From Escherichia coli (lineage in GTDB: Bacteria > Pseudomonadota > Gammaproteobacteria > Enterobacterales > Enterobacteriaceae), in NCBI RefSeq assembly GCF_003790525.1, contig NZ_CP033635.1: a stretch of DNA of 64,000 bases; one strand, 5' to 3'. The translations under genes were made by a program, and so were the position numbers. Below, in pieces: positions 2,399 through 2,665 of the stretch. The notes below the pieces were generated by a model, which did no database searches, had not been told where the DNA came from, and saw only the letters and a list, made by a program, of their open reading frames with translations. Within the stretch, counting starts at the first letter, position 1. Each line of letters opens with the position of its first letter.

Positions 2399-2402
<4 letters not shown>

Positions 2403-2665
2403 AAGAGTTTTTATTTTTATTTCACTCCACGGTCGGCGTCATACAAACCCGCAAGGCGTTGCAGGCAGCGGGCATGACTTTTCGCGTCAGCGATATTCCC
2501 CGTGATTTACGCGGCGGCTGCGGGTTATGCATTTGGCTGACCTGTCCCCCCGGCGAGGAAATACAATGGGTGATCCCTGGGCAGACCGAAGCGATATATT
2601 GCCAGCAGGGCAGCGACTGGCAGTGCGTGGTGCATTACGATTCAGAAGCGTCAACCAGGCAATAA
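2399..2665 (+). CDS. Small Cys-containing protein, DUF3343-like (putative S/Se carrier-like)
   Basis: 88 aa; its ATG overlaps the yjiL stop (ATGA), implying translational coupling; motif FHSTxxxxxxxKxLxxAG ... PRDLRGGCGL resembles the DUF3343 pattern as I recall it. Confidence 0.45.

Follow-up and report, generated by a model that had tools for sequence, protein, structure and literature searches.

The window analysed in this study is a 64,000-nucleotide (nt) stretch of DNA from Escherichia coli SMS-3-5, matched at 100% to NC_010498.1, and its subject is ytiA, a small gene that follows yjiM and yjiL. The three genes and the junction between the last two are as follows.

474-1625, plus strand: yjiM, the first gene of the operon, coding for a predicted double-cubane-cluster [8Fe-9S] reductase (DCCP), from the RefSeq coding sequence (CDS), Pfam and NCBIfam.
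1635-2402, plus strand: yjiL, coding for a BcrAD/BadFG-type ATPase, the predicted reductase/activator of the DCCP, from the RefSeq CDS, Pfam and TIGR00241.
2387-2391, plus strand: a Shine-Dalgarno-like GAGGA within the 3' end of yjiL, 7-8 nt 5' of the ytiA ATG.
2399-2402, plus strand: the overlap ATGA of the ytiA start and the yjiL stop, read from the sequence.
2399-2665, plus strand: ytiA, an open reading frame (ORF) of 88 amino acids (aa) with an ATG start, a DUF3343/PF11823 "putative Se/S carrier" gene.

The stop codon TGA of yjiL occupies 2400-2402. An earlier sequence-only reading of the window had pointed to the ATGA overlap and to a backbone-like GC content, and had proposed that the frame genuinely belongs to the yjiM-yjiL operon as its third gene. 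The overlap is present as described. The GC content of ytiA (0.539) is close to that of yjiM (0.532) and yjiL (0.560); the value for the downstream pentapeptide-repeat gene is 0.348. The frame shares the strand of yjiL, overlaps its stop codon and has a Shine-Dalgarno element within it, as a translationally coupled gene does. Since ORFs of 76-103 aa also occur antisense within yjiL, the length of ytiA alone is not beyond chance. Thus, the gene is judged to be real because of its homology and conservation and not because of its length.

The same reading had regarded the frame as unlisted and had given no named K-12 gene for this position, and in this it was mistaken. In SMS-3-5, RefSeq lists the ytiA CDS as WP_000657678.1, a DUF3343 domain-containing protein. 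The counterpart in K-12 MG1655 is ytiA (b4715, YP_009518833.1, "uncharacterized protein YtiA"), which also overlaps yjiL by 4 nt. The gene was matched in 5385 of the 5426 complete E. coli genomes, and the matched features are named ytiA, DUF3343 protein or "putative Se/S carrier protein". Since the ORF belongs to PF11823 and already bears the name ytiA, the gene itself was known before this analysis. In a literature search for "ytiA", every match read concerned a Bacillus L31 paralogue and not the E. coli gene.

To analyze the conservation of the gene, we scanned one genome per species, which gave 54 loci from Enterobacteriaceae and Hafnia. The order yjiM-yjiL-ytiA was kept in all 54. The ytiA frame was intact (78-89 aa) in 51 of them; one locus ends at a contig edge and two are frameshifted. 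In every intact locus, the start codon of ytiA runs into the stop of yjiL, with 4 nt shared (ATGA or GTGA) in 39 loci and 1 nt in 11. Larger overlaps were observed in two loci (8 nt, in L051 and the frameshifted L060) and in Hafnia (11 nt). A purine-rich element is found at the Shine-Dalgarno position in the orthologous loci.

The ratio of nonsynonymous to synonymous substitutions (dN/dS) was calculated by the Nei-Gojobori method, and its medians are rough because dS is saturated (about 1.2-1.3). The median was 0.24 for the whole of ytiA, 0.10 for yjiL and 0.05 for yjiM. Within ytiA it was 0.18 for residues 1-60 and 0.42 from residue 61 to the end. The non-consensus fractions at the first, second and third codon positions were 0.20, 0.16 and 0.41, respectively. 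These results, together with the conserved gene order and the Pfam match described below, bear out the proposal of a genuine third gene, for which conservation and the synonymous/nonsynonymous pattern had been named as the check.

The only two frameshifted copies among the 54 loci are those of Citrobacter amalonaticus AUH_CA_2023_1 (L059) and Enterobacter sp. EA-1 (L060). In L059 the yjiM match covers residues 1-194 alone, and in L060 yjiM has 56% identity over residues 29-323. Since yjiM is only partially matched in both, the operon seems to be lost as a unit, which suggests that yjiM-yjiL-ytiA decays as one.

YtiA was then compared with protein families by hidden Markov model (HMM) searches. 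The regions concerned are the following.

2408-2575, plus strand: match to the Pfam Se_S_carrier domain, residues 4-59, corresponding to profile positions 2-57 of 69.
2498-2530, plus strand: conserved motif P34-R-D-L-R-G-G-C41-G-L-C44; Cys41 is encoded by 2519-2521 and Cys44 by 2528-2530.

YtiA matched PF11823 (Se_S_carrier, formerly DUF3343) at E = 3.6e-13, scoring 49.2 bits where the cut-off is 25, so that the description of the ORF as DUF3343-like was correct. In Enterobacteriaceae, P34, R35, C41, G42 and C44 are each conserved in 50 of 50 species. Among the distant DUF3343 proteins obtained in the full HMM search, F8, P34 and C41 are invariant and G42 also persists. Cys41 is invariant in 33 distant and 22 context-labelled homologues, and the cysteine motif of the family is P-x-P-R-x(5)-C-G. 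The size of YtiA fits the family (80-100 aa), and its invariant cysteine fits the highly conserved one noted by Lin et al. 2015. The other members of PF11823 more commonly have PVPR and SSS, whereas the enterobacterial YtiA clade has DIPR and RGG with a fixed second cysteine (CGLC). At the position of Cys44, most of the DCCP-linked homologues from anaerobes have Ser or Ala (mostly Ser, as CGIS).

The sequence-only reading had also noted several cysteines. Five are present in this allele, at residues 41, 44, 49, 68 and 76. Only part of this observation extends to the orthologues: Cys41 alone is invariant family-wide, and Cys44 is fixed within the enterobacterial clade. In the 50 enterobacterial species, Cys41 and Cys44 are found in 50 each, Cys49 in 42, Cys76 in 25 and Cys68 in four. 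An Fe-S site or a multi-cysteine metal site in YtiA was ruled out by the counts for Cys49, Cys76 and Cys68.

An AlphaFold2 model built from a 17-sequence alignment had a mean predicted local distance difference test score (pLDDT) of 87 and a predicted template modelling score (pTM) of 0.78. The predicted order of elements is beta-alpha-beta-beta-alpha-beta-beta. The loop that joins strands 2 and 3 in the model contains the motif, with Cys41 where strand 3 is entered. A PDB sequence search gave no meaningful relative of YtiA (best E = 0.049, spurious), and no NCBIfam model matched it. In Pfam, neither TusA (PF01206, at E up to 1) nor DsrE was matched. The TusA/YedF/YeeD and DsrE carriers are small single-cysteine proteins that share gene neighbourhoods with the YtiA family, namely those of YedE transporters, cysteine desulfurase or selenocysteine (Sec) lyase, SelD and DCCP. 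In contrast to TusA, YtiA has a predicted ferredoxin-like fold and lacks the CPxP motif. Because the Pfam match, the fold and the CPxP motif differ, YtiA is not a member of these families and at most would work as they do.

Next, the two upstream proteins were assigned. YjiM had been described as 2-hydroxyacyl-CoA dehydratase-like. The Pfam match to HGD-D (E = 2.6e-122) agrees with this description; a double-cubane-cluster reductase, however, fits better. YjiM scored 531 bits (cut-off 350) with NCBIfam NF040772, "double-cubane-cluster-containing anaerobic reductase". Its alignment to 6ENO, a DCCP of solved structure, had E = 5e-75, and nine cysteine columns are invariant between YjiM and the DCCP of Carboxydothermus hydrogenoformans (DCCP_Ch). 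The published seven-cysteine spacing, applied as a strict regular expression, misses YjiM (spacings 18/18/29/164/30/30), and the assignment rests on the 6ENO alignment and NF040772. On these matches, the name of a double-cubane-cluster reductase suits YjiM better than that of a 2-hydroxyacyl-CoA dehydratase. YjiL matched PF01869 (E = 6.8e-76) and TIGR00241 (364 bits, cut-off 125). Thus, YjiM is homologous to the DCCP of the C. hydrogenoformans DCCP/DCCP-R system (PDB 6ENO, 7YYL), and YjiL is an archerase-type ATPase. The N-terminal extension seen in DCCP_Ch is absent from YjiM (PMC7317905). Whereas two components make up the published system, the enterobacterial operon adds a small gene that appears to be translationally coupled. 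As for the yjiM start, a mechanical ORF list places it at the GTG of 453 (390 aa) and RefSeq at the ATG of 474 (383 aa), so that 453-473 of the window is in question; every orthologue aligns from the first residue of the 383-aa form.

To know how often a DUF3343 gene accompanies a DCCP gene, metagenome contigs were scanned with an alignment of DCCP sequences in which 6ENO stood first, and the best 80 of 563 confirmed loci were analyzed. These loci encode DCCPs 39-74% identical to DCCP_Ch. The set is biased to DCCP_Ch-like sequences and includes some near-duplicates, and its genes were called by a simple longest-ORF heuristic. The DUF3343 HMM matched within 5 kb of the DCCP gene in 20 of the 80 loci (17 of the 57 that are at least 6 kb long). 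In about 15 loci the DUF3343 gene directly adjoins the DCCP or the activase gene. Three orders were found: DCCP-DUF3343-activase, activase-DCCP(-DCCP)-DUF3343 and DCCP-activase-DUF3343. In four DUF3343-positive loci no activase gene is nearby. Adjacency that survives the shuffling of gene order is a classical signature of a functional link, and the DUF3343-DCCP pairing is seen in lineages that are unrelated to each other. DUF3343 is not a constant third component of these loci. Because 60 of the 80 lack it and many DUF3343 genes occur without DCCP, the pairing is facultative, and in YtiA the DCCP/DCCP-R system has an optional third partner.

The neighbours of the DCCP genes were also classified with Pfam. 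Among 93 neighbours in 16 DUF3343-positive loci, TusA was found 7 times, Sulf_transp 5, DsrE 4 and Aminotran_5 3 times. Among 150 neighbours in 32 DUF3343-negative loci, the counts were 9 for DsrE, 6 for HTH_1 (LysR-type), 5 for TusA and 4 for AIRS/AIRS_C. By NCBIfam NF010705 (330-339 bits, cut-off 291), all four AIRS proteins are SelD, and their genes lie directly downstream of the DCCP gene. Two of these loci are DsrE-TusA-DCCP-SelD operons (L102, 4136-7206; L108, 4067-7194). The other two (L081, 345-3395; L100, 1871-5002) contain DsrE and SelD genes, with a small gene beside DCCP that has no Pfam TusA match. None of the four has an activase gene within 5 kb. With locally built HMMs, at least one family of a sulfur/selenium (S/Se) relay (TusA, DsrE, YedE, Sec-lyase-like or SelD) was detected in 39 of the 80 loci, and a small carrier in 35. 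The same HMMs detected nothing except ytiA itself in 180 kb of control enterobacterial DNA. TusA, DsrE and DUF3343 take equivalent positions in DCCP loci.

The closest parallel to the E. coli locus is L143 (3534-9536), which has the same order DCCP-activase-DUF3343. Its genes are, in turn, Sec-lyase-like (opposite strand), DCCP, activase, DUF3343, C_GCAxxG_C_C, YedF and SelD. Its DCCP (383 aa) is 53% identical to YjiM. The Sec-lyase-like protein scored 478 bits with TIGR01977 (cysteine desulfurase family), YedF 206 bits with TIGR03527 (cut-off 110) and SelD 365 bits with TIGR00476.

Two further arrangements were observed in the census. In L075 (4426-6823) and L078 (4456-6823), whose DCCPs are 71-73% identical to the Carboxydothermus enzyme, a 112-aa DsrE-like gene lies immediately upstream of DCCP-activase, and no DUF3343 gene is present there. 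L085 (2859-3407), L080 (1375-1926) and L121 (7489-8046) encode DUF3343-domain proteins of about 184 aa, with the domain at residues 23-87 and a C-terminal half that has no family assignment. These genes lie between YedE-like transporter and Carb_kinase-like genes, and a tandem DCCP pair is two to three genes away.

The neighbours of distant DUF3343 genes were similar in kind. In two non-enterobacterial contexts (P0137 and P0138, 35% identical), the triad HGD-D (383 aa)-BcrAD-DUF3343 is present. The genes P0148 and P0159 adjoin a YedE/Sulf_transp transporter gene, and P0159 also has a class-V aminotransferase and a LysR gene as neighbours. P0153 lies beside a TusA-DsrE fusion. P0168 and P0151 overlap class-V aminotransferase genes (cysteine desulfurase or Sec lyase), and P0151 is also accompanied by TusA. 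The closest non-enterobacterial homologue, P0133, was uninformative; it is on a contig of only 1.4 kb, on which no DCCP gene is seen upstream. Unlike the family members that are linked to YedE, YedF or Sec lyase, enterobacterial ytiA is linked to DCCP.

Several published observations concern the same genes. Lin et al. proposed that DUF3343 is an Se/S chaperone (PMC5322559), and in the STRING table of that report the DUF3343 partners in Slackia include "activase" and "2-hydroxyglutaryl-CoA dehydratase subunit". Of the genes that overlap selD, duf3343 is one of the five most frequent (10.1101/2022.04.13.486033). Haft and Gwadz found 955 of 970 high-scoring DCCPs in SelD-encoding genomes, with DUF3343 unmentioned (10.1101/2022.07.06.499078). 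PMC10418091 uses the words "provisionally linked to selenium metabolism". Thus, the association of DCCP with selenium is itself already in the literature; in the literature searched, the explicit DUF3343-DCCP link and the DsrE-TusA-DCCP-SelD operons were not found spelled out. In E. coli, an independent-component analysis of the transcriptome defined an uncharacterized iModulon with ynjXYZABCD, yedEF, yjiLM and also ynjE as its four operons (PMC7888660). Its activity is higher under anaerobic conditions, and the authors connect it with the use of molybdenum and selenium. In exponential-phase O157:H7, yjiM was increased 2.76-fold and was among the anaerobiosis-associated genes (PMC2241611). These iModulon and array data cover yjiLM and not ytiA. 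With its overlapping start, ytiA is probably the third, translationally coupled gene of an anaerobically expressed operon, yjiM-yjiL-ytiA.

As for the function of the small protein, the sequence-only reading had offered a redox or sulfur-carrier partner of the YjiM system. This appears to be the best supported of the readings considered, judging from the gene context of the family. With moderate confidence, we propose that YtiA is a cysteine-based S/Se carrier partner of YjiM and YjiL, which probably presents S(0) or Se(0) for reduction. Sulfane sulfur or selenium would be held on Cys41 as a persulfide or perselenide; in the enterobacterial clade, a selenotrisulfide across the C41-G-L-C44 pair may be formed instead. 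YtiA would present the bound S/Se to the [8Fe-9S] reductase YjiM, into which ATP hydrolysis by YjiL would drive low-potential electrons. The bound S(0) or Se(0) would then be reduced and released as sulfide or selenide, and selenide is the substrate of SelD. The binding of S/Se and the contact with YjiM are inferred, as are the transfer's direction and chemistry and the preference for selenium over sulfur. A contact with YjiM is favoured over one with YjiL because DUF3343 genes adjoin the DCCP gene also in loci that have no nearby activase.

Several points weigh against a carrier function in this system. No known sulfur carrier is among the matches of the fold searches with the YtiA model; all of them are generic folds of the ferredoxin-like, PII or CutA kind. 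The literature search gave no experimental report of YtiA expression or of S/Se binding by DUF3343, and the family is named "putative". The 60 DCCP loci that have no DUF3343 gene within 5 kb contain TusA, DsrE or nothing in its place, and DUF3343 genes are numerous where DCCP is absent. Beside the enterobacterial yjiM-yjiL-ytiA operon, the HMM scan detected no other S/Se gene. YtiA evolves faster than YjiL and YjiM, its C-terminal third is poorly constrained (see above), and in some E. coli strains ytiA carries a truncation, an in-frame deletion or a prophage insertion. Furthermore, Dobbek and colleagues described a two-component DCCP system and considered a CoA ester to be the likely substrate of YjiM (PMC7317905). 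DCCP was described in 2018, and reports of 2022 and 2025 still call its physiological substrate unknown or unclear (PMC9351452, PMC11971306).

A more specific form of the carrier proposal can be suggested tentatively, and we consider it possible but doubtful. YjiM, YjiL and YtiA might constitute an ATP-driven selenium (or sulfane-sulfur) reductase, which would be the missing specific route of selenide to SelD. YedE and YedF would import or handle selenium, Se(0) would be parked on Cys41 (or on Cys41/Cys44), and its reduction at the double-cubane cluster would release HSe-.

The invariant cysteine may also serve a different purpose. YtiA could be a maturation factor that delivers desulfurase-derived sulfide or selenide for the assembly of the YjiM cluster, for example its bridging mu2-S. 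The DUF3343 genes that overlap or adjoin class-V aminotransferase genes (cysteine desulfurase or Sec lyase) agree with such a role, and a selenium-bridged cluster was raised as a formal possibility by Haft and Gwadz (10.1101/2022.07.06.499078). However, only 25% of the DCCP loci have a DUF3343 gene nearby, and in places that have no DCCP, DUF3343 is likewise paired with YedE transporters and YedF. A SelD gene directly downstream of DCCP suits the hand-over of a product better than the assembly of a cluster. Accordingly, we regard a maturation factor as unlikely.

The C41-G-L-C44 pair raises the possibility of a CxxC thiol-disulfide redox protein, which would pass electrons to or from YjiL/YjiM or protect their oxygen-sensitive clusters and carry no S/Se cargo. 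The pair is present in 50 of 50 Enterobacteriaceae species, and in L143 the gene that follows DUF3343 encodes a C_GCAxxG_C_C "putative redox-active protein". The second cysteine, however, is not invariant family-wide. Because it is replaced, mostly by Ser, in most DCCP-linked homologues from anaerobes, this explanation is weakened. In addition, by established redox chemistry a dithiol couple is far too positive for an ATP-driven low-potential reductase. We give a redox protein of this kind little credence.

A PII-like regulator or adaptor, which would act on YjiL or YjiM and tune the ATPase or the electron transfer with the cysteine as a structural element or sensor, seems just as improbable. 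The best Foldseek matches to the YtiA model were PII/GlnK proteins (E about 0.02, TM-score about 0.5). PII/GlnK and CutA share with YtiA a beta-alpha-beta-beta-alpha-beta core and a conserved loop between strands 2 and 3; the motif loop corresponds in position to the PII T-loop. However, these matches are weak and not specific beyond the ferredoxin-like fold, the identities are 2-16%, and YtiA shows no sign of nucleotide binding or trimer formation. The genes that accompany the family belong to S/Se trafficking and not to signalling. Finally, a chance or decaying frame without function, to which the antisense ORFs of similar length in yjiL and the truncated or interrupted copies in some E. coli strains might point, is already refuted by the conservation data (Pfam E = 3.6e-13, 51 of 54 frames intact with a conserved start overlap, dN/dS 0.24 with excess third-position variation, and a confident fold at pLDDT 87) and has practically no chance of being correct.

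The allele in the window differs from that of K-12 at its 3' end.

2583-2665, strand not assigned: diverged 3' segment of ytiA, codons 62-88, from the alignment with K-12.

The identity between SMS-3-5 and K-12 is 99.5% over 2399-2582 and 65% over 2583-2665. YtiA has 88 aa in SMS-3-5 and 85 aa in K-12, and the first 61 residues are identical. A sharp recombination breakpoint is thus located within ytiA, and it coincides with a downstream low-GC island (0.31-0.35). The island, within 2666-5000 of the window, contains a gene for a 657-aa pentapeptide-repeat protein (2987-4960) between ytiA and a yjiK-like gene. The O55:H7 counterpart of this gene is annotated as the type III secretion system effector EspX6. 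The ytiA/low-GC junction type was found, at a query coverage of at least 80%, in 639 of the 5385 E. coli genomes.

Other changes were observed in individual E. coli strains. In STEC306 (L005, NZ_CP091016.1, 1-3217), prophage tail-fibre genes adjoin a 5'-truncated ytiA, which is annotated as a 71-aa DUF3343 CDS. This locus is without yjiM and yjiL, and a second matching place exists elsewhere in the record. It appears that the prophage integrated in or beside the 5' part of ytiA. In O55:H7 DEC5B (L003, 3336-4103), yjiL is flagged as a pseudogene, whereas the annotation gives yjiM and the DUF3343 gene as intact. In 2013C-4830 (L006, 2600-2851), ytiA has an in-frame 6-nt deletion (MKEFLFHST..., 83 aa), by which two residues of the first beta-strand are removed.

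As the discovery of a gene, the result is ordinary, because the gene is annotated and its family described. E. coli possesses a minimal version of the system, composed of the DCCP, the ATPase and the DUF3343 carrier candidate YtiA, and the operon is co-regulated with yedEF. If YjiM, YjiL and YtiA do form a selenium reductase, this would be the first physiological function for double-cubane proteins, and it would explain their near-perfect co-occurrence with SelD. The trio makes two questions testable in E. coli: the function of DCCP and the supply of selenide to SelD.

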